Assembly: GCF_003334785.1 (NCBI RefSeq)
Contig: NZ_QOWV01000014.1
Strand: one strand, 5' to 3'
DNA length: 64,000 nt
DNA from: Escherichia coli
GTDB lineage: Bacteria > Pseudomonadota > Gammaproteobacteria > Enterobacterales > Enterobacteriaceae
Part shown: piece by piece, positions 11,981 to 21,609 of the stretch
Position numbering within the stretch: the stretch's first letter is position 1
How the letters are laid out: each line of letters begins with the position of its first letter
Notes under the pieces: model-generated
The model's input: only the letters and a program-made list of their open reading frames with translations
What the model was told of the DNA's origin: nothing
The model's database searches: none
Position numbers and translations under genes: made by a program

Positions 11981-12916
11981 ATGGCACTGCCAATTCTGTT
12001 AGATTGCGACCCAGGTCATGACGACGCTATCGCAATAGTTCTCGCCCTCGCCTCACCAGAGCTTGATGTCAAAGCAATTACGTCTTCCGCCGGAAACCAG
12101 ACACCAGAAAAAACCTTACGCAATGTTCTGCGTATGCTGACCTTGCTTAATCGCACCGATATTCCGGTAGCAGGCGGCGCGGTAAAACCGTTAATGCGTG
12201 AGTTGATTATCGCGGACAATGTGCACGGCGAAAGCGGTCTCGACGGCCCGGCATTACCGGAACCGACATTCGCACCGCAAAACTGTACGGCGGTAGAGCT
12301 GATGGCGAAAACGCTGCGTGAAAGTGCGGAACCTGTCACCATTGTGTCTACCGGACCGCAAACTAACGTTGCCTTGCTGCTCAATAGCCATCCGGAACTG
12401 CATAGCAAAATTGCCCGTATCGTGATTATGGGTGGCGCTATGGGGCTGGGTAACTGGACGCCTGCGGCTGAATTTAATATTTACGTTGACCCGGAAGCGG
12501 CAGAAATTGTCTTCCAGTCAGGGATCCCGGTGGTGATGGCCGGTCTGGATGTTACTCATAAAGCACAAATCCACGTTGAAGACACCGAGCGTTTCCGCGC
12601 GATTGGTAACCCTGTTTCAACCATTGTTGCCGAACTGCTGGATTTCTTCCTCGAATATCATAAAGACGAAAAATGGGGCTTTGTCGGCGCACCACTGCAT
12701 GACCCATGCACCATCGCCTGGCTGTTGAAACCGGAGTTATTTACCTCTGTTGAGCGCTGGGTTGGCGTGGAAACACAGGGGAAATATACCCAGGGTATGA
12801 CGGTTGTTGATTATTATTATCTGACAGGCAATAAACCGAATGCCACCGTAATGGTCGATGTTGATCGTCAGGGCTTTGTTGATTTACTGGCTGATCGTCT
12901 GAAATTTTACGCTTAA
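11981..12916 (+). CDS. rihA: Pyrimidine-specific ribonucleoside hydrolase
   Basis: Start at ATG 11981 ([18 protein letters not shown], the nucleoside hydrolase DxDxxxDD motif), preceded by AGGAG; 311 aa. Confidence 0.85.
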
Positions 12917-12925
12917 CACACGTCA

Positions 12926-12985
12926 TTGATTAAGATCACCACGCGTTACCTGGGTGGTCTTAATCTGTTTATCTCTTTTTCTTTC
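12926..12985 (+). terminator. Candidate intrinsic terminator after rihA
   Basis: Inverted repeat GATTAAGATCACC / GGTGGTCTTAATC followed by a T-rich tract. Confidence 0.5.
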
Positions 12986-12999
12986 AAGATATAAATGCA

Positions 13000-14670
13000 A
13001 TGGATAATGCAGAACTCGCCATTGGTATCGATCTCGGTACTACCAATAGTTTAATTGCCGTCTGGAAAGACGGTGCCGCGCAATTAATTCCAAATAAGTT
13101 CGGTGAATATTTAACACCATCCATAATTAGCATGGATGAAAATAATCATATTTTAGTCGGAAAACCGGCTGTATCACGGCGTACTTCGCATCCGGATAAA
13201 ACGGCAGCGTTATTTAAACGTGCAATGGGCAGTAATACCAACTGGCGGTTAGGCAGCGACACATTTAACGCGCCAGAACTGTCCTCTTTGGTATTACGCT
13301 CATTAAAAGAAGATGCCGAAGAATTTCTGCAACGTCCGATTAAAGATGTGGTGATCTCCGTTCCGGCTTATTTCAGCGATGAACAACGCAAGCATACCCG
13401 TTTAGCAGCGGAGTTAGCCGGGTTAAATGCGGTACGCTTAATTAATGAACCCACAGCAGCTGCGATGGCGTATGGCCTGCATACCCAACAAAATACCCGT
13501 TCGCTGGTGTTTGATCTCGGTGGCGGCACGTTTGACGTTACGGTGCTTGAGTACGCCACGCCGGTGATTGAAGTTCACGCCTCCGCTGGCGACAACTTTC
13601 TTGGTGGCGAAGATTTTACCCATATGCTGGTCGATGAGGTTTTAAAACGCGCGGATGTCGCCAGGACCACGCTTAACGAGAGTGAACTGGCAGCCTTGTA
13701 CGCCTGTGTGGAAGCGGCAAAATGTAGCAATCAATCGCCATTGCACATTCGCTGGCAGTATCAGGAAGAAACGCGGGAATGCGAATTTTACGAGAACGAA
13801 CTGGAAGATTTGTGGTTGCCGCTGCTCAATCGCTTGCGAGTGCCGATTGAACAGGCGTTGCGCGATGCGCGTCTGAAGCCGAGTCAAATCGACAGTCTGG
13901 TGCTGGTTGGCGGCGCGTCACAAATGCCGCTGGTGCAGCGAATCGCCGTGCGTCTGTTTGGCAAATTACCGTATCAAAGTTACGATCCGAGCACCATTGT
14001 CGCGCTGGGCGCAGCAATCCAGGCCGCCTGCCGCTTACGCAGTGAAGATATTGAAGAGGTAATCCTCACTGATATTTGCCCTTACTCGTTGGGCGTTGAA
14101 GTTAACCGCCAGGGCGTTTCCGGCATTTTCTCGCCGATTATTGAACGAAACACCACTGTGCCCGTGTCGCGTGTAGAAACTTATTCAACCATGCACCCGG
14201 AACAGGATTCAATTACGGTTAACGTCTATCAGGGAGAAAACCACAAAGTTAAAAACAACATTCTGGTGGAATCCTTCGATGTGCCGTTGAAGAAAACCGG
14301 GGCTTATCAGTCGATTGATATTCGCTTTAGTTATGATATCAACGGGTTGCTTGAAGTTGACGTGCTTCTGGAAGACGGCAGCGTTAAGTCCAGAGTGATT
14401 AACCACAGCCCGGTAACATTGAGCGCGCAGCAGATTGAAGAGAGTCGGACGCGGTTATCCGCATTGAAAATTTATCCGCGCGATATGCTCATCAATCGCA
14501 CCTTTAAAGCCAAACTGGAAGAGTTGTGGGCGCGGGCGCTGGGTGACGAGCGAGAAGAGATCGGCCGGGTGATCACCGATTTTGATGCGGCGTTGCAGTC
14601 AAACGATATGGCCCGCGTGGATGAAGTTCGGCGGCGGGCGAGCGATTATTTAGCCATTGAGATCCCATAA
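13000..14670 (+). CDS. hscC: Hsp70-family chaperone Hsc62
   Basis: 556-aa ORF with Hsp70 ATPase signatures (IGIDLGTTNS, DLGGGTFD); shorter than DnaK. Confidence 0.9.
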   Translation: MDNAELAIGIDLGTTNSLIAVWKDGAAQLIPNKFGEYLTPSIISMDENNHILVGKPAVSRRTSHPDKTAALFKRAMGSNTNWRLGSDTFNAPELSSLVLRSLKEDAEEFLQRPIKDVVISVPAYFSDEQRKHTRLAAELAGLNAVRLINEPTAAAMAYGLHTQQNTRSLVFDLGGGTFDVTVLEYATPVIEVHASAGDNFLGGEDFTHMLVDEVLKRADVARTTLNESELAALYACVEAAKCSNQSPLHIRWQYQEETRECEFYENELEDLWLPLLNRLRVPIEQALRDARLKPSQIDSLVLVGGASQMPLVQRIAVRLFGKLPYQSYDPSTIVALGAAIQAACRLRSEDIEEVILTDICPYSLGVEVNRQGVSGIFSPIIERNTTVPVSRVETYSTMHPEQDSITVNVYQGENHKVKNNILVESFDVPLKKTGAYQSIDIRFSYDINGLLEVDVLLEDGSVKSRVINHSPVTLSAQQIEESRTRLSALKIYPRDMLINRTFKAKLEELWARALGDEREEIGRVITDFDAALQSNDMARVDEVRRRASDYLAIEIP

Positions 14671-14673
14671 ACA

Positions 14674-14716
14674 CGGCTGCCGGATGCGGCGTAAACGCTG
14701 CATCCGGCATCGGCGC
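14674..14716. repeat. REP-type palindrome between the convergent hscC and djlC
   Basis: GCTGCCGGATGCGGCGTAAACGCTGCATCCGGCATCGGCG. Confidence 0.55.
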
Positions 14717-14729
14717 AAAAAACACATCG

Positions 14730-16181
14730 TCAGCTAAACAACATCGCGATTTTGCCGAGAGCATAACCTATCACCAGCACCGTTAAACTGATTTTGATAA
14801 TGCTGGTAATGCTCTGTGGTTTTTCACCCTCATCATTTTTTTCTTCATGATTTTCAGGTGTTGGCTCATCGACATCTTCATCCTCCGGCTCGAGTTTCAC
14901 TTTCGTCAAAAGCATCCGGGTGACAATGGCCTCTAATGGATGAGCATCTCCGCCTTCCAGCCTTGTATTAAGACGGGCCAGCATCTCTTGTTTCGGAAAC
15001 GCTTCAAGTACTACCTGTTCCGCTACCCGATACAAATCCAGGAACGGTGAATCTTGCTCTGTCTCGCTACCGACTCTCGATTTCCACCACGCCCATGCTT
15101 TGCGCTTGAAGAATAACGACTCAATAAACGATTGACCTAACGGCGATAATTTTCCGCTATGTAAAATCTCCGCCCATAACAGCCGCGTCCGGGCGCTCTC
15201 ACCAGGAACATATTTCAGCGGTTGACCTTGCGCATCTACCATGCTCCGCGCTTCGATAACCATCACTAATAACGCGAAATAATCCGGGCAATGACGCTTG
15301 CTCCACTGCAACAACAAATTATCAGCTTGTGTAGATGGGTAACTTTCCCAGTACGCGCAGAGATCGGCAAGCAGGCTTTCCCCCTCGCCGCAGTACAAAC
15401 GTTGTGCACACAAGTAATACCGGGCATCTTCGCTTTCTGGTTCTTCCGTTTGCCACTGTTGAGCGACAGGAATGAGTTCCGCCATACCTGTTTGCACCGA
15501 GCTGTACCAGCGCAACAGTTTGCGATGTAACTTTGCATCATCAGGAATTAACCACGGACCTTCCATCGCCAAAAACGCAGTGACATAGTCAGGATGGTAA
15601 CGGCAGCAACGTTCCAGCGCGAAGTAATACTCAACAGTCTGGTTCTGCAACGCAATGGGATATTCCAGAAGGCTAAGGAAATCGAAACAATCACCAGCCT
15701 GAATGGCCTCAAGAAAAGCCTCCCTTTCTTCCTCATCCATTCCTTCGCTGTCATTAAATGAATGCCAGTTCAAACGCTCTGCCAGCAAAGAAGCACAATT
15801 TAATGAAAGATATCGCGCTTCTATGGCGATTGCACACAGCGGCCAGCGTAATTGATCGACATCCTCCATGTTCCAGGTATTTAATTGCTGAATAAATTTC
15901 TGCCAGGCGGAAGGCTGAAAACGATCACTTTCTGAATCCAGTAATGTCCTGAATGCACGTAGTATTTCATGTTCAGCGGCAGCATCTTTTTCTTCATCAT
16001 CTGCTTCCTCGACAGGATTTACCGCCAGTCGCAGGGCCTCTTCATAGGCCTGGCGTAATGCTTTAAACCCTTGCGGATCGGTTTCGGGATGACACAACGG
16101 TAAGCGAGCAAGATAAGCCTGGCGGATAATGTCTATTTGCGTCGTGCTTTCAATTTCGAGGATTTGCCAACATGTTTTCAT
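14730..16181 (-). CDS. djlC: Tail-anchored J-domain co-chaperone (Hsc56)
   Basis: 483-aa ORF with an N-terminal J-like domain (ILEIE...[21 protein letters not shown]) and a hydrophobic C-terminal segment; paralog of the djlB ORF. Confidence 0.85.
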
Positions 16182-16885
16182 AGGTCGCTCACATCCTTAA
16201 GCGTTACCGGGCATTCAGACTGGACAGTTAATGGCTGCCAGGGAAGCGTGGCATAGAAACGATCGCTTCCCGCTGCCAGCTCTTCGAACATACGACTCCC
16301 GGCGCTATCGTATTTGTACAGGGTTAGCGCCTCGCGTAGCGAAGTGTTGTCTTCGCACTGAGAAGATTGCCAGTAGAGACGTCCTAACGAATAGGCGGAA
16401 AAATAGTGCATCCAGCTGTGATAGTAATGGTGAGCTCGTACATAGACGCGCGATTGCAGCCATAAACTCTCTTCTTCCGTCAGCCACTTGTTGAGCACAC
16501 CGACCCGTGACAGAAACCCCATTCGAACATAATCCCAGGCTTTGATTCCCCCTTCCCCACAGCACATAGCGGTTTGGGCAACGAATTGGGTATAAATCAA
16601 CCCTCTCTCCGAGCCACCAGCAATTAATGCTTTCCACTCTTCAGGGGAAGAGCGATGCCATGTCAGATATAAGCCAGCTAAATCATTGGCATGACCATCA
16701 TCAGTCATCTGATAAATAGTCTGAATTAAATCATCACGATTATTTATTCCCCAGGATGATGAGAGCTCGAATTCTTTTATCCCAGTATACATTTTTGGCG
16801 AGTCATGCGCGGGTTTGCAACCCTGATTAAGTATTTCCATGGGCGCAGAAAGCGCAAAAAGAAGATATTGTTCTTCCTTATTCAT
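16178..16885 (-). CDS. ybeU: DUF1266-family protein
   Basis: 235-aa ORF, paralogous to the ybeR ORF with a shared [20 protein letters not shown] block; ATGA overlap with djlC. Confidence 0.8.
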
Positions 16886-16986
16886 TTGTTAATAATCCCT
16901 TAAGTGCATTAACTGACTACTTTTTTATTATTGATGAGTATAAACTTGACGCTTTCAAAATAAAAAGAAAATCGAAGCATTCACAC

Positions 16987-17541
16987 ATGAATAAAAAATT
17001 AATGTATATATTCGCAATTTTTATAGTTGCAGCAATTACCTGTATTAGCCAACCCAAGAAAACGACGTTGCGTGATAAAGCCATGGTGAATTATGCCTTT
17101 GATTATTTAAGCTCACCGGGCAGTCTTCCATTCACCACGGCAGCCACGGAGCTTTCCGCGATTCATGGTCACTCAACGTCGCAATATCGCCTTGGAGAAT
17201 TTTATCTTCATGGTAGCGACGGTAAACCACTGGATTATACACAGGCGAGATACTGGTATGAGCAATCAGCGGAACAGGAAAATCCACGCGCGCAAAGTAA
17301 ACTGGGGTGGATCTACCTCAAAGGTCTGGGGGTCAAACCCGACACCCGTAAAGCAATTCTCTGGTATAAGGAAGCAGCTGAACAAGGGTATGCTCATGCT
17401 CAATATACTTTAGGTTTGATCTACAGAAATGGCTCAGGTATTAATGTTAACCATTATGAATCTCAAAAATGGTTAAAACTGGCCGCCAAACAACATTACA
17501 AAAATGCGGAAAGATTACTTGCCGGGCTTCCCGCACATTAA
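16987..17541 (+). CDS. ybeT: Sel1-repeat protein with N-terminal signal peptide
   Basis: 184-aa ORF with a hydrophobic N-terminus and Sel1-like repeats ([16 protein letters not shown]..., [15 protein letters not shown]...). Confidence 0.8.
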
Positions 17542-17550
17542 CGTCGACTG

Positions 17551-18978
17551 TCACCCGAACAGATGGAGTATTTTCCCTATCAAACCAGCAAAGATAAAAA
17601 TATAGAAAATAATTTTAATGATGCCCAGACAGCCTGGCCCACCATCGTCAACGGGCATTGGCTGCGGTTGCGGCTCCGGTTCAACAGTTTGCTTCTCGGT
17701 AAAATTCGCCGCCTGAATTAATAATCGACGAATAATTAATGCTTCCAGTGGACAACGATTTTCTGCATCAAGGCGGCTCACAATCGGCATTAATGATTCT
17801 TCTGTAGGTTGGCAGGCCTGCACTAATTGTTTGGCAACTAGATATAATGGCCATAAGGTATGTTCTGTATCACGCGTGAGTGAGATCCGCGGCTTACGTC
17901 CTTTGTGCAAAACCATCTCGACCAGTGAACGCCCCAGCGCAGAGAGTTTTTCATCGCTGAGTATTTCGTATAAATGAAAACGCGTACGGGCGCTGTCGCC
18001 GGGGACATAAAGTAGCGGTTTTCCCTGATCGTTAACCAGATCACGCGCTTCAATCATCATCACCAGTAATGGGTAATAATCGACCCGATGCTGACGGCAC
18101 CATTGCAACATTAAAGCATCCGCCTGGGTGGAGGGATACTCGCGCCAGTAGTCACAAAGTTCTGCCAACAGGCTTTCGCCTTCTCCACAATAGACGCGTT
18201 GCGCGTATTCATAATAAGGCGCATCTTCATTATCAGGTTCAGTTTCCCGCCATGACTGGGCGTAATCCAGAAGTTCGGGGATATCCAGGCGACCTGCGCT
18301 ATACCAGCGGAGTAAATTTCTGTGCAGTTTTGCATCATCGGGGATAATCACTGCGCGATGTTGCGCTAAATACAATGTCAGCCATTGTGGATGCGATGAC
18401 CAAATCCGAGCGAACATTTGGTAAAAATCGATGGTGTCATTTTGCACGGCAACGGGCAGATGCAGAATGGTCTGGAAGTTAAAAACATTCCCCTTCGCAA
18501 TGGCATATAAAAAGGATTCCAGTTCTTCTTCGTCTATTTCCCCGGTATTTTCCTCCTGTAACCACCGCAATCTTTCTGCTAATAACACCACGCACTCGAA
18601 GGATAAATGGGCAGTGTTCATGGCGATTGTGCACAGCGACCAGCGTAATTCATCAATCTCCTCCATCGAGCAATAATTTAATTGCTGAATGAATCGCTGC
18701 CAGGCGGAGGGCAGAAAACGTTCACTATCAGAGGCAAGTAACGCACGAAAGGCGAGCAGAATTTCATGTTCTGCTACCTCATATTCTTCTGGTTGCCAAA
18801 CAGATTTAGCAGGCGACTGCGCAATCCGTAGCGCCTCCTCATACGCCTGACGAAGTTGTTTAAAACCCTGCGGATCGGTTTCTGGATGAAAGGACGGTAA
18901 CAGCGCCAGATAAGCGCGGCGGATAATATCGACGTCAGTCGTTTCCTCTATATCGAGGATCTTCCAGCAATTTTTCAT
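17551..18978 (-). CDS. djlB: Tail-anchored J-domain co-chaperone
   Basis: 475-aa ORF paralogous to djlC ([38 protein letters not shown]...), with a C-terminal hydrophobic segment. Confidence 0.85.
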
Positions 18979-19682
18979 AGGTCGCTCATATCCTTAAGCG
19001 TTTCCGGGCATGCAGAATAGTAAGCCAATGGTTGCCAGGACAAGGTAGGGTAATACGCATCATCACTGGCAAATAATTGATAAAACATATCATTGCCGGA
19101 ATCGTCGTATTCTTTACGCGCTAAGAATTCGCGTAATAAAGGCAGATGATCATCTTCGGGAGACTGCCAATATTGCCGACCAAAGGTATAACCGGCAAAG
19201 TATTGCCGCCAGTTACTATAATAACGTAGAGCCCGTAGATGAATGCGCGACTGGATCCATAGACTTTCTTCTTCGCTCAACCAGTTATTAAGTACGCCCA
19301 TTCGGCTTAAAAAACCCATCCGGACATAATCCCAGGCTTTGATTCCCCCTTCGCCACAGCATTCGGCGGTGCTGGCGACAAATTGCGCATAAGCCTGACC
19401 TTGCTCATTTAGTTCAGCAAGATAGTCACGCCATTCACATGGCGAATAACGAAACCAGCGGTGATAAAACCCTGCCAACCGAGCGGCATGACCGTTATCG
19501 ATCATTCGGTGAATTGTGCGCAGCAGGTCATCACGGTCATCAATTCCCCATGAGGAAGAAAGGTCAAAAAAGCATGTACCTAAATACATTTTGGGTGATG
19601 AATGCGAAGGTAAACAGCATTCATTGCGTATTTCCATCGGAGTGGAAAGTGCAAACAATATTTTTTGCGACTCCATGTCCAT
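18975..19682 (-). CDS. ybeR: DUF1266-family protein
   Basis: 235-aa ORF paralogous to ybeU; ATGA overlap with djlB. Confidence 0.8.
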
Positions 19683-19845
19683 ATAATTTATCCTTAAATA
19701 TTCATTAAATGAATATTAGCCGCATTGCGAGGCTCGTTTATTTATACTTTTCTGACGCGACATAATACGCATAAAATAAGGCTTACGCAAAAATGGAACA
19801 CATAAAAATATAATATGTTTTATCTGCAACCATAAGGAAATGATA

Positions 19846-20823
19846 ATGATTTTCACGTCAAGTTGCTGCGATAATTTATCAATAGATGAGATTATCGAAC
19901 GTGCTGAAAAAGGCGATTGCGAGGCTCAATATATTGTTGGGTTTTATTATAATCGCGATAGCGCAATTGATTCTCCGGACGACGAAAAAGCCTTTTACTG
20001 GCTGAAGCTGGCCGCTGAGCAAGGTCATTGTGAAGCACAGTATTCCTTAGGGCAAAAGTATACCGAGGATAAAAGCCGTCATAAAGATAATGAGCAAGCC
20101 ATCTTCTGGCTGAAAAAAGCTGCCCTACAAGGCCATACTTTCGCTTCCAACGCCCTTGGCTGGACACTGGATCGTGGAGAAGCCCCCAATTATAAAGAAG
20201 CGGTTGTCTGGTATCAGATAGCCGCGGAGAGCGGAATGTCTTATGCGCAAAATAATCTTGGGTGGATGTACAGAAATGGCAACGGAGTCGCAAAAGACTA
20301 TGCGCTGGCATTTTTCTGGTACAAACAAGCTGCATTACAAGGCCATAGTGACGCGCAAAACAATCTGGCCGATCTTTATGAAGACGGAAAAGGCGTTGCT
20401 CAAAACAAGACACTCGCCGCATTCTGGTATTTGAAAAGCGCACAGCAGGGTAATCGGCACGCCCAGTTTCAAATTGCATGGGATTATAACGCTGGCGAAG
20501 GGGTGGACCAGGACTATAAGCAAGCGATGTACTGGTATCTGAAGGCTGCCGCTCAGGGGAGCGTCGGCGCTTACGTCAACATCGGTTATATGTATAAACA
20601 CGGACAAGGCGTTGAGAAAGATTATCAGGCTGCCTTTGAATGGTTTACGAAAGCCGCTGAATGCAATGACGCCACTGCCTGGTATAACCTGGCCATTATG
20701 TATCACTACGGAGAAGGAAGACCTGTCGATCTCCGACAGGCTCTCGACCTGTATCGTAAAGTTCAGTCATCCGGAACCAGAGATGTCAGTCAGGAAATTC
20801 GTGAGACTGAAGATTTACTGTAG
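19846..20823 (+). CDS. ybeQ: Sel1-repeat protein, apparently cytoplasmic
   Basis: About seven Sel1-like repeats (AQY.LG..Y..G.GV..D); no N-terminal signal peptide. The start is uncertain (ATG at 19840 or 19846). Confidence 0.8.
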   Translation: MIFTSSCCDNLSIDEIIERAEKGDCEAQYIVGFYYNRDSAIDSPDDEKAFYWLKLAAEQGHCEAQYSLGQKYTEDKSRHKDNEQAIFWLKKAALQGHTFASNALGWTLDRGEAPNYKEAVVWYQIAAESGMSYAQNNLGWMYRNGNGVAKDYALAFFWYKQAALQGHSDAQNNLADLYEDGKGVAQNKTLAAFWYLKSAQQGNRHAQFQIAWDYNAGEGVDQDYKQAMYWYLKAAAQGSVGAYVNIGYMYKHGQGVEKDYQAAFEWFTKAAECNDATAWYNLAIMYHYGEGRPVDLRQALDLYRKVQSSGTRDVSQEIRETEDLL

Positions 20824-20833
20824 AGATAAAAAC

Positions 20834-20875
20834 AAGGGCCGGGGAATTTCATTCGGCCCATATTCTCTTTATTGC
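20834..20875 (+). terminator. Candidate intrinsic terminator between the convergent ybeQ and ybeL
   Basis: Hairpin GGGCCG-GGGAATTTCATT-CGGCCC followed by a T-rich tract. Confidence 0.5.
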
Positions 20876-20892
20876 TGTGCGAAATCAGACTA

Positions 20893-21375
20893 TTACGGCT
20901 CAAACGGGCGTCTCTGGAACTGGTCATGACCACATTTCGGGCATAGCGTCAGCACTTCCGGTGTGTAGATCGGGAGATGGAAGTGACATTTCTCGCAGAC
21001 CAGATTTCCCAGCCCGACCACTTCTCCGCTGTGATAAACCCCATGATGATTGAGGTCCTGGAAAACTTCGCGCCATTCAAGCTGCGTTTTATCGGTGATG
21101 TCTGCCAGCTCCTGCCACAAGCTTTCTTTAATCACCCGCATAAAGACGCTGTCAGATTCTTCTTTCAGGCTCTCTTCATAGCTCATGGCGAACTCTTCCA
21201 GGTCACGTCTGACAGCTCGCGTCAGCTCATCGACCTCGGTTCGCGTTAACTCCCCTGTTTTTATTACGCGCTCGCGCGCCTGTTCCACCAGTGCGTCGAT
21301 ATCACGTTCGCCATTGCGCAGGCGTTCGCTCAGTGACGCAACCAGTTCACGGTAATATTGAGCAACCTTGTTCAT
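20893..21375 (-). CDS. ybeL: DUF1451 zinc-ribbon-containing protein
   Basis: 160-aa ORF with C-terminal CxxC...CxxC (CEKCHFH...CPKCGH). Confidence 0.8.
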   Translation of the reverse strand: MNKVAQYYRELVASLSERLRNGERDIDALVEQARERVIKTGELTRTEVDELTRAVRRDLEEFAMSYEESLKEESDSVFMRVIKESLWQELADITDKTQLEWREVFQDLNHHGVYHSGEVVGLGNLVCEKCHFHLPIYTPEVLTLCPKCGHDQFQRRPFEP

Positions 21376-21609
21376 CGTTTCATCTCCCGGGTCGTTAACT
21401 GACTATAATAATAGACGTTCTTTGTTCCTTGCTTTGCTAATACGCCCACAAACTCTGTAAATTAATGTATGAATAATCCGGGCATCATTTCAACGTCGAG
21501 TGCGCGAAAGGCTGTTTTGACGCGGACGTTTGGGCTATGCTATGCGGATCTGAAAAACCACCTCAACGCTACATTTGTAGCCGTATTGAAAACAGGACCA
21601 CTGGCTGCC

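Follow-up and report, generated by a model that had tools for sequence, protein, structure and literature searches.

The HscC locus and its DUF1266 genes

The window, i.e. the whole 64,000-nt stretch of Escherichia coli DNA analysed here (contig NZ_QOWV01000014.1), holds the E. coli HscC chaperone locus, which is built from two tandem modules, ybeQ/ybeR-djlB and ybeT/ybeU-djlC (Table 1); some 3,700 E. coli genomes have both modules. In both modules, a DUF1266 gene leads into a J-domain gene via a 4-nt ATGA overlap, and PMC6469107 lists ybeU and djlC as a single transcription unit. The published system comprises only HscC, DjlC, and DjlB and assigns no role to the DUF1266 proteins; according to a review, the ATPase of HscC is stimulated by DjlC, DjlC and DjlB both have tail anchors, and strains with hscC or djlB djlC deleted are sensitive to Cd2+ (PMC8215388). 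By position, ybeU and ybeR resemble parts of this system, lying directly upstream of djlC and djlB with 4-nt overlaps and next to hscC; however, their products are outside the published set, and a physical interaction is something that we infer. We found no report in the literature of an interaction of YbeU or YbeR with DjlB, DjlC, or HscC.

Table 1. Genes and repeated segments of the HscC locus; positions refer to the window
Feature	Position	Strand	Description
hscC	13000..14670	+	Hsp70 served by DjlC/DjlB (PMC8215388)
djlC (ybeV)	14730..16181	-	Tail-anchored J-domain co-chaperone of HscC; downstream of ybeU (PMC8215388)
ybeU	16178..16885	-	235 aa; Pfam DUF1266 at residues 41-216; stop overlaps djlC start (ATGA)
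Coding region of 20-aa identical block, ybeU	16505..16564	-	Residues 108-127
29-nt exact block, ybeU	16527..16555	-	Gene nt 331-359; codons E111-Y119 and 2 nt of V120
ybeT	16987..17541	+	Sel1/TPR-repeat gene, ybeU module
djlB (ybeS)	17551..18978	-	djlC paralogue (51% aa identity); downstream of ybeR (PMC8215388)
ybeR	18975..19682	-	235 aa; DUF1266 paralogue; stop overlaps djlB start (ATGA)
Coding region of 20-aa identical block, ybeR	19302..19361	-	Residues 108-127
29-nt exact block, ybeR	19324..19352	-	Gene positions as in ybeU
ybeQ	19840..20823	+	Sel1/TPR-repeat gene, ybeR module

The pairing of the two gene types recurs outside E. coli. At four distant homologue loci, the gene downstream of the DUF1266 gene overlaps it by 4-14 nt; at three of them, this gene carries PF27158 (DjlB_C_2nd), while the fourth has an unannotated 921-aa gene without a Pfam match, and an Hsp70 gene adjoins the DUF1266 pair at two of the four. 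The order of a DUF1266 gene followed by a DjlB C-terminal-type gene is found in homologues of 25-40% identity, and the gene order in Klebsiella is ybeL, DUF1266, djl, hscC. These gene orders and overlaps show that DjlB/DjlC-type genes have a conserved partner in the DUF1266 gene, which is translationally coupled to them and often located beside an HscC-type Hsp70 gene. The pairing suggests an overlooked additional component in the poorly understood HscC system. PADLOC gave no match for YbeU, YbeR, DjlC, DjlB, or HscC, and the DUF1266 and Djl proteins of the locus had no match in NCBIfam; an assignment of the module to a defence system or a curated family was rejected.

An exact 29-nt repeat in two diverged genes

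ybeU and ybeR are anciently duplicated DUF1266 genes. Their products align without gaps at 59% amino acid identity, the genes are 63% identical at the nucleotide level, third codon positions are 45.5% identical, and synonymous sites are saturated (pS 0.76 overall). Orthologues group by copy, with identities of 91-97% among ybeU genes and 90-96% among ybeR genes. An earlier note on this DNA had reported an identical 27-nt block in the two genes, surrounded by diverged sequence, and we confirmed both observations. In the window, the 27-mer ATAATCCCAGGCTTTGATTCCCCCTTC is found at two places only, 16529-16555 and 19326-19352, and allowing up to three mismatches adds no third copy (0 expected in shuffles). 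The exact run extends 2 nt beyond the 27-mer to 29 nt, with a mismatch on either side (16526/19323 and 16556/19353). Its sequence on the coding (minus) strand is GAA GGG GGA ATC AAA GCC TGG GAT TAT GT, which encodes E111-V120 in both proteins, within a block of 20 amino acids that is identical between YbeU and YbeR.

Because ybeU and ybeR are paralogues, the repeat is far above what chance would give in random sequence. Given the aligned amino acids, the P value for a run of 29 nt or more is 0.004 if codons are redrawn independently, 0.012 if codon pairs are permuted within each amino acid, and 0.014 if the scan includes the neighbouring djlC/djlB pair; the second-longest exact run between the two genes is 13 nt. 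Thus, the 29-nt run exceeds chance given the protein identity modestly, but not strongly, which leaves pure chance a somewhat uneasy explanation. None of the 5.0 synonymous sites differ in codons 111-119, but next to them, in codons 120-127, which belong to the same identical amino acid block, ~6.8 of 6.7 synonymous sites differ, so that the flanks are fully diverged. At nonsynonymous sites, the block has the lowest pN in the gene (0.05 vs 0.26 overall).

The protein segment encoded by the repeat

YbeU matches the Pfam DUF1266 model (PF06889) at model positions 2-175 of 175 (E 4.7e-45, 154 bits); the HMM scan was run on YbeU, and YbeR is assigned to the family by its gapless identity to YbeU together with its RefSeq annotation. 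Using a conservation profile of 95 diverse DUF1266 proteins and a 53-sequence alignment, we found that the best-conserved 9-residue window of the family is GIKAWDYVR (residues 113-121). W117, D118, and R121 are near-invariant with weighted frequencies of 90-96%, and R121 is invariant in the 53-sequence alignment. Together with W45, H65, E139, W158, G168, and W172 (YbeU numbering), these near-invariant residues and A116 make up a signature that the Klebsiella orthologue has in full, as do YbeU and YbeR. The earlier note had suggested that the block is a functional core. At the protein level, this idea is supported by the low pN and by the family-wide peak at GIKAWDYVR; it does not extend to the DNA identity, and conservation across the family is limited to the AWD..R half of the block, while the CCGEGG half is subfamily-specific.

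The amino acid block is retained in other species, the absence of which had been named as a result that would speak against a constrained segment: the Klebsiella spallanzanii orthologue keeps 18 of the 20 amino acids, and the core CG.GGI[KR]AWD is present in homologues at 35-40% identity. Tandem DUF1266 paralogues in another genome were considered as an independent replication and set aside as uninformative; they are 31% identical, and one lacks the AWD motif. The AlphaFold model is all-alpha and confident (pLDDT 94). Mapping onto it, as the earlier note had proposed, places the block at the end of helix 93-109, in the loop 110-112, and in the first two-thirds of the central helix 113-131. A Foldseek search against AFDB50 returned solely DUF1266 proteins, including a Salmonella 'ybeR' at 60-62% identity. 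We suggest that the AWD..R helix is a putative binding surface, by which the DUF1266 protein may work with the co-translated DjlB or DjlC, and thus with HscC, at the inner membrane. The A-W-D-x-x-R helix is the part to mutate for learning the role of YbeU and YbeR.

Synonymous drift and the origin of the nucleotide identity

At the nucleotide level, the block varies among orthologues and within E. coli. At synonymous sites, ybeR of Escherichia sp. has GGG GGG and that of E. whittamii GGC GGA ATA, while the Klebsiella block reads GGT GGA ATA CGC. In E. coli itself, ybeR haplotype B (GAG GGA GGA ATT) carries three synonymous differences inside the block and is present in 1,849 genomes vs ~1,900-2,270 with the ybeU-identical haplotype, i.e. 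in about half. Polarisation on three outgroup Escherichia species, a thin sample with four usable non-coli loci from a genome-contig scan, identifies the ybeU-identical state of ybeR as ancestral, and the in-block changes in ybeR of E. coli, Escherichia sp., and E. whittamii all lead away from ybeU. The nucleotide identity of the block, therefore, drifts freely and is not itself conserved or selected.

These data bear directly on the idea that the block acts as a nucleotide element (as structured mRNA, as the target of an sRNA, as a Shine-Dalgarno-like pause site within the gene at GGGGGA, or as a site read from the other strand), with selection on DNA or RNA keeping its synonymous sites identical. 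Both paralogues share the rare, purine-rich codons GAA GGG GGA, including the rare glycine codons GGG GGA, which form the Shine-Dalgarno-like AAGGGGGA, and the G113 codon is GGA or GGG in all Escherichia and Klebsiella copies examined. However, a family-wide rule of rare GGR codons for G112 and G113 does not hold, as distant homologues use GGT GGG or GGC GGC for these glycines, and the free variation of synonymous sites in orthologues and in half of the E. coli ybeR alleles largely refutes such an element. Searches for RNA or DNA elements at the block were likewise negative. With E values up to 1, Rfam returned nothing at the block in a scan of 12900-21500, where the only matches were sub-threshold, REP-like, and located elsewhere; predicted RNA folds of the block region are no more stable than those of shuffled sequences (z +1.41, +0.74, and -0.01) and differ between the two copies; and no promoter-like site on either strand overlaps the block. 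One weak hairpin resembling a terminator, at 19335-19320, overlaps the ybeR block and has no counterpart in ybeU, and terminator-like sites are no commoner than in shuffles (4 found vs 4.3 expected). Altogether, we regard a nucleotide element as very improbable.

Gene conversion between the two copies, which the earlier note had raised for the block, deserves more weight. According to this alternative, ectopic conversion in short tracts, either old or recurring from time to time, made or refreshed the identity of ybeU and ybeR, and the block serves as an anchor of about the minimal RecA-type homology length; the minimal efficient processing segment for recombination in E. coli is ~23-27 bp. 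Consistent with conversion, protein constraint by itself predicts a shorter run (P ~0.01). Moreover, the ybeU allele of the B2/ST131 type has seven lineage-specific changes, six of which lie in the 25 nt that adjoin the block on its 3' side, a clustering reached in 0 of 200,000 simulations. This patch (nt 360-384; GTG CGG ATG GGT TTT TTA TCA CGG GTT), present in ybeU of 798 genomes, consists of derived synonymous changes that are partly ybeR-like: those at nt 363, 369, 373, and 375 have the ybeR state, while those at nt 360 and 384 do not match ybeR. The B2-type ybeU thereby contains a 45-nt tract with one mismatch to ybeR (permutation P 2e-4 for a tract chosen post hoc). A third ybeU haplotype, a mosaic present in 24 genomes (L022 type), has ybeR-like states only in part. 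Within nt 355-395 of ybeU, five of nine changes match ybeR, which is near the expectation from transition bias. Across the whole of ybeU, derived variants match ybeR more often than expected (19 vs 13.4; P 0.019), but the reciprocal excess in ybeR is not significant (16 vs 12.8 expected; P 0.14).

Several observations argue against conversion at the block itself. The ybeU-identical state of ybeR is not lineage-specific but common to several species, and because it is ancestral and being lost, recent gene conversion is contradicted. The in-block changes of E. coli lead away from ybeU, and no genome shows concerted changes in its ybeU and ybeR. The codons right after the block are maximally diverged (TCA vs AGC), so that any conversion tract would be ~30 nt or less; typical bacterial conversion tracts are far longer. 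Duplicated bacterial genes can evolve in concert by RecA-dependent gene conversion, as do tufA and tufB, which likewise are two paralogues on one chromosome with a common identical DNA stretch. However, the tuf genes are ~99% identical throughout and closer to each other as paralogues than to their orthologues, whereas ybeU and ybeR are 63% identical with saturated synonymous sites and share 29 identical nt.

The block was also evaluated as a crossover point. Recombination between the two modules at short identity does occur, as in the djlB/djlC hybrid of BL21(DE3), a deletion fusion with its junction in a 14-nt identical stretch, and with 29 nt the block likewise approximates a minimal substrate for short-homology deletions and fusions. 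We built both hybrid junctions (ybeU 3' half with ybeR 5' half, and vice versa) and used them as queries against 5,426 complete E. coli genomes; they had no match at high identity along their full length, and the only sequences returned were normal ybeU and ybeR, whose alignments ran on into the diverged half with 86-90% identity. No ybeU/ybeR hybrid or other recombinant junction at the block was found among these genomes, in which respect the block differs from short-homology fusions, and its use as a crossover point was rejected. Considering both sides, we find it unlikely that conversion made or refreshed the identity. In a combined scenario, the block and its immediate 3' flank would form a hot spot for ectopic conversion of very short tracts anchored on protein-constrained minimal homology, while the identical AWD..R docking helix would be kept for a shared partner surface in HscC/DjlB/DjlC; we consider this scenario less likely still.

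Rather, the 29-nt identity probably reflects, at the DNA level, an invariant signature segment common to two old DUF1266 duplicates, and not a functional DNA or RNA element: ybeU and ybeR would share 29 identical nt because this stretch encodes the most conserved protein motif of the family. Under this explanation by protein constraint, purifying selection on the protein would fix about two-thirds of the bases in the block, which encodes the loop and the N-terminal turns of the central helix with G113, A116, W117, D118, and R121, and the remaining eight synonymous positions would coincide by chance. This coincidence dates back to the Escherichia ancestor and would be a neutral feature; it is now eroding in many lineages. 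The repeat is, then, real and explained, but ordinary. It illustrates how old paralogues with a conserved protein motif can come to share a short stretch of exactly repeated DNA, which resembles a signal without being one.

Two further explanations were considered. The one-module arrangement of the ST131 type did not arise via the block, as the deletion spans from inside djlB to inside ybeQ and thus joins non-paralogous points. Finally, some ybeR alleles (the ATLPW variant) have YbeU-like amino acids in their 3' part; conversion from ybeU was rejected as their origin, as the codons differ from those of ybeU, arguing instead for convergence or allelic divergence.

The identity between ybeU and ybeR

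The repeat shared by the DUF1266 paralogues ybeU and ybeR is real and, save for a 2-nt undercount of its length, was correctly located by the earlier note; it is not novel. The 27-mer described there occurs at only two sites (16529-16555 and 19326-19352), with no further match at up to three mismatches, and the exact run is 29 nt (16527-16555, identical to 19324-19352). On the coding strand, it reads GAA GGG GGA ATC AAA GCC TGG GAT TAT GT, encodes E111-V120 in both proteins, and sits within a block of 20 identical residues (residues 108-127). As the earlier note held, the surroundings have diverged: ybeU and ybeR align without gaps, with identities of 59% for amino acids, 63% for nucleotides, and 45.5% for third positions, and no other exact run exceeds 13 nt. 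We conclude that purifying selection of the ordinary kind, acting on an annotated family motif, explains the identity together with eight synonymous sites that were mildly lucky or anciently converted, and that the block is not a separate functional element.

Against random sequence, the repeat is trivially beyond chance; the fair null for run length keeps the protein alignment fixed. With the two codons at each identical residue drawn anew from the codon pool of both genes, the probability of a run of at least 29 nt is 0.004; it is 0.012 with the observed codon pairs permuted among positions of the same identical amino acid and 0.014 once the djlC/djlB pair enters the scan. Synonymous divergence (pS) between the two genes is saturated at 0.76. 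Within the identical block, 0 of 5.0 synonymous sites differ in codons 111-119, and essentially all differ in codons 120-127 (e.g., serine TCA versus AGC). Based on these P values and the saturated flanks, the 29-nt run is thus a modest outlier inside fully diverged sequence.

At the protein level, YbeU gives a full-length match to Pfam DUF1266 (E value, 4.7e-45), and 373 relatives were found among 1.84 billion cluster representatives. Among 95 aligned sequences that cover the core, GIKAWDYVR (113-121) is the most conserved 9-residue window and the best-conserved 20-residue windows begin at residues 110-117; weighted frequencies are 0.90-0.96 for W117, D118, and R121, and conservation extends to G113, A116, L125, and R127. 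An alignment of 53 sequences, in which R121 and G168 never vary, gave a confident, all-alpha AlphaFold2 model (pLDDT 94, pTM 0.91). On this model, the block takes in the end of helix 93-109 and the loop 110-112 and continues two-thirds of the way along the long helix 113-131. A search for solved structures with a similar fold found none, and an AFDB50 search returned DUF1266 proteins only. A check of divergence rates showed that nonsynonymous divergence (pN) is lowest in the gene at the block (0.05 versus 0.26 overall). Because the block combines the family conservation peak and the lowest pN with a confident model, the suggestion that it marks a functional core is supported at the protein level, with AWD..R the clearest case; conservation of the CCGEGG half is limited to the closer subfamily. 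The suggestion does not extend to the DNA identity, which is variable in ybeR orthologues.

Drift of the block and the question of gene conversion

The ybeR block reads GAA GGG GGG ATC in two Escherichia species and GAA GGC GGA ATA in E. whittamii, and the single-copy gene of Klebsiella spallanzanii has GAA GGT GGA ATA CGC. Among the 13 E. coli haplotypes examined, ybeR has two forms. In haplotype A, the block is identical to ybeU; haplotype B has GGT GAG GGA GGA ATT, with three synonymous changes inside the block. Using 60-nt queries that allow no seeding by the other haplotype, we counted 1,849 genomes with haplotype B; haplotype A was present in about 1,900 genomes by exact matching and in 2,270 when coverage of 80% or more was accepted. 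Because the block DNA varies in orthologues and alleles, and searches there for promoter-like sites, Rfam families, and a stable or shared RNA fold were negative, a nucleotide-level function is very unlikely.

The earlier note also offered gene conversion as an explanation. Polarizing the E. coli polymorphisms with three outgroup species, we found that the ancestral ybeR state is identical to ybeU (A, G, and C at gene nt 333, 336, and 342) and that haplotype B is derived, in a direction away from ybeU. Therefore, the identity is older than E. coli and eroding, which rules out a recent conversion event at the block. The three derived changes are fully linked within 10 nt (ybeR nt 333-342; window 19341-19350; e.g., 7363-7372 in locus L007), a further linked difference between haplotypes A and B lies at nt 330, and none of the changes matches ybeU. 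This clustered change is possibly a multinucleotide mutation or an import from an unsampled lineage. Orthologues cluster by copy (ybeU-ybeU, 91-97%; ybeR-ybeR, 90-96%; ybeU-ybeR, 62-63%), and parallel changes in ybeU and ybeR occur in no genome.

We consider it rather improbable that short-tract conversion between ybeU and ybeR contributed to the identity. The argument for it comes from B2/ST131-type ybeU, in which six of seven lineage-specific changes are packed into a patch at nt 360-384, immediately 3' of the block. The ybeR state is adopted by four of these changes, making 44 of 45 nt identical to haplotype A ybeR (permutation P of 2e-4, for a pair picked post hoc), and 798 genomes have the patch. 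However, the flanking changes of this patch (nt 360 and 384) do not have the ybeR state, there is also a third ybeU haplotype of mosaic type, and the ybeR matches within nt 355-395 (5/9 changes) are near the prediction from transition bias. Moreover, over the whole gene, variants that match the paralogue are only slightly in excess (ybeU, 19 versus 13.4 expected, P of 0.019; ybeR, 16 versus 12.8 expected, P of 0.14), and none of 5,426 genomes has a hybrid gene joined at the block.

Separately, the 3' end of ybeR (nt 621-670; window 19013-19062) has two deep E. coli haplotypes with 13 differing sites in 50 nt, including amino acid changes (YYPTLSW versus YYATLPW), and a local divergence far above the gene average.

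Tandem modules and overlap with J-domain genes

Genes at the ybeU-ybeR locus
Gene	Position in window	Strand
hscC	13000-14670	+
djlC	14730-16181	-
ybeU	16178-16885	-
ybeT	16987-17541	+
djlB	17551-18978	-
ybeR	18975-19682	-
ybeQ	19840-20823	+
ybeL, leuS	beyond ybeQ, in that order	

Positions 14730-19682 are 100% identical to K-12-like E. coli genomes. The genes listed include two tandem copies of a three-gene module. In each copy, one strand carries a Sel1/TPR gene, and the opposite strand carries a DUF1266 gene with a J-domain co-chaperone gene downstream of it. The dot-plot comparison proposed earlier was answered by direct-repeat analysis, in which the two modules were collinear, always displaced by 2,797 nt, and their best segments had 71-77% identity. 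G+C content is 0.42-0.48 over both modules (~15000-20000) versus 0.51-0.54 in the flanks. This fits the strong H-NS repression reported for a DUF1266 gene in E. coli strain 042 (PMC7582179), the variable presence of the locus, and Klebsiella, which lacks the Sel1 genes and the second module. Sub-threshold Rfam naRNA4 (RF02564) matches on both strands of the hscC-djlC gap (14659-14731; 28-30 bits versus a gathering score of 59.5) probably reflect a REP-type palindromic element between these convergent genes.

ATGA is shared by the end of each DUF1266 gene and the start of the J-protein gene paired with it. The same order, DUF1266 then Djl-type, is present in Klebsiella and in three of four distant homologue loci examined, the fourth having an unannotated 921-aa gene there; an Hsp70 gene adjoins in two of the four, and one has tandem copies of the pair. 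TPR repeats are fused to some longer DUF1266 proteins (4/36), echoing the neighboring Sel1/TPR genes. We infer that YbeU and YbeR are co-produced as partners of DjlC and DjlB and that the invariant W117-D118-x-x-R121 helix could form part of their binding or active surface. In a distant genome (L019, 1547-10741), two DUF1266/DjlB-like pairs stand in tandem with a third DjlB-like gene after them, beside a gene for PspA; Escherichia is therefore not alone in having amplified the module in tandem. Escherichia sp. MOD1-EC7003 (L001, 2648-3976) has an extra djl-like gene beside ybeL, 27-29% identical to DjlB/DjlC.

A second patch of synonymous identity lies at the 3' ends of ybeU and ybeR, where the final 37 nt have 35/37 identities, ATGCCCGG.AACGCTTAAGGAT.TGAGCGACCTATGA (16178-16214 and 18975-19011, minus strand); pS in codons 216-235 is 0.16 versus 0.76 gene-wide. 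It includes an SD-like TAAGGA, located 12 nt before the djl start codon that overlaps the end of the gene (ATGA). Other Escherichia species retain most of the patch, and Klebsiella retains part of it. This DNA may be constrained by translational coupling; if so, selection at the nucleotide level would be more plausible here than at the 29-nt block.

Module loss, decay, and database entries

Both modules are present in about 3,690 of 5,426 genomes and the locus is unmatched in about 1,009, so that it represents a presence/absence polymorphism. BL21(DE3) has one module (hscC, a hybrid djl gene, ybeR, and ybeQ; L017, 2483-3933). The hybrid, djlB for approximately the first 95 nt and djlC thereafter, is joined inside the 14-nt identity GAAACCGATCCGCA (16072-16085 and 18869-18882), which encodes the J-domain HPETDPQ motif, and is frameshifted by the loss of 1 nt. 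In 111 E. coli collection records, the ybeU query matched ybeR alone. In ST131-type genomes (L006, 6822-7287), a deletion between points that are not paralogous has removed most of djlB, the whole of ybeR, and ybeQ in its 5' part. Internal stops are present in djlC of O157:H7 strain 1130 and strain LR-64-1 and in ybeQ of ATCC 43896, O157:H7, and BL21; the decayed modules come from loci L009, L012, L013, and L017. Inside the ybeU block, rare nonsynonymous variants are G112R (L010) and F124V (L014). The frequent module decay and these rare variants suggest relaxed selection in some lineages.

Three public entries are probable contamination or misannotation: a contig end of "Paenibacillus sp. USDA918EY" (L005) that is 100% identical to E. 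coli ybeU, a 932-aa AFDB "Trichuris trichiura DnaJ-like protein" with 97% identity to YbeU over the matched part, and a 627-aa AFDB E. coli entry, "Hsc56 co-chaperone of HscC," that looks like a ybeU-djlC fusion call.
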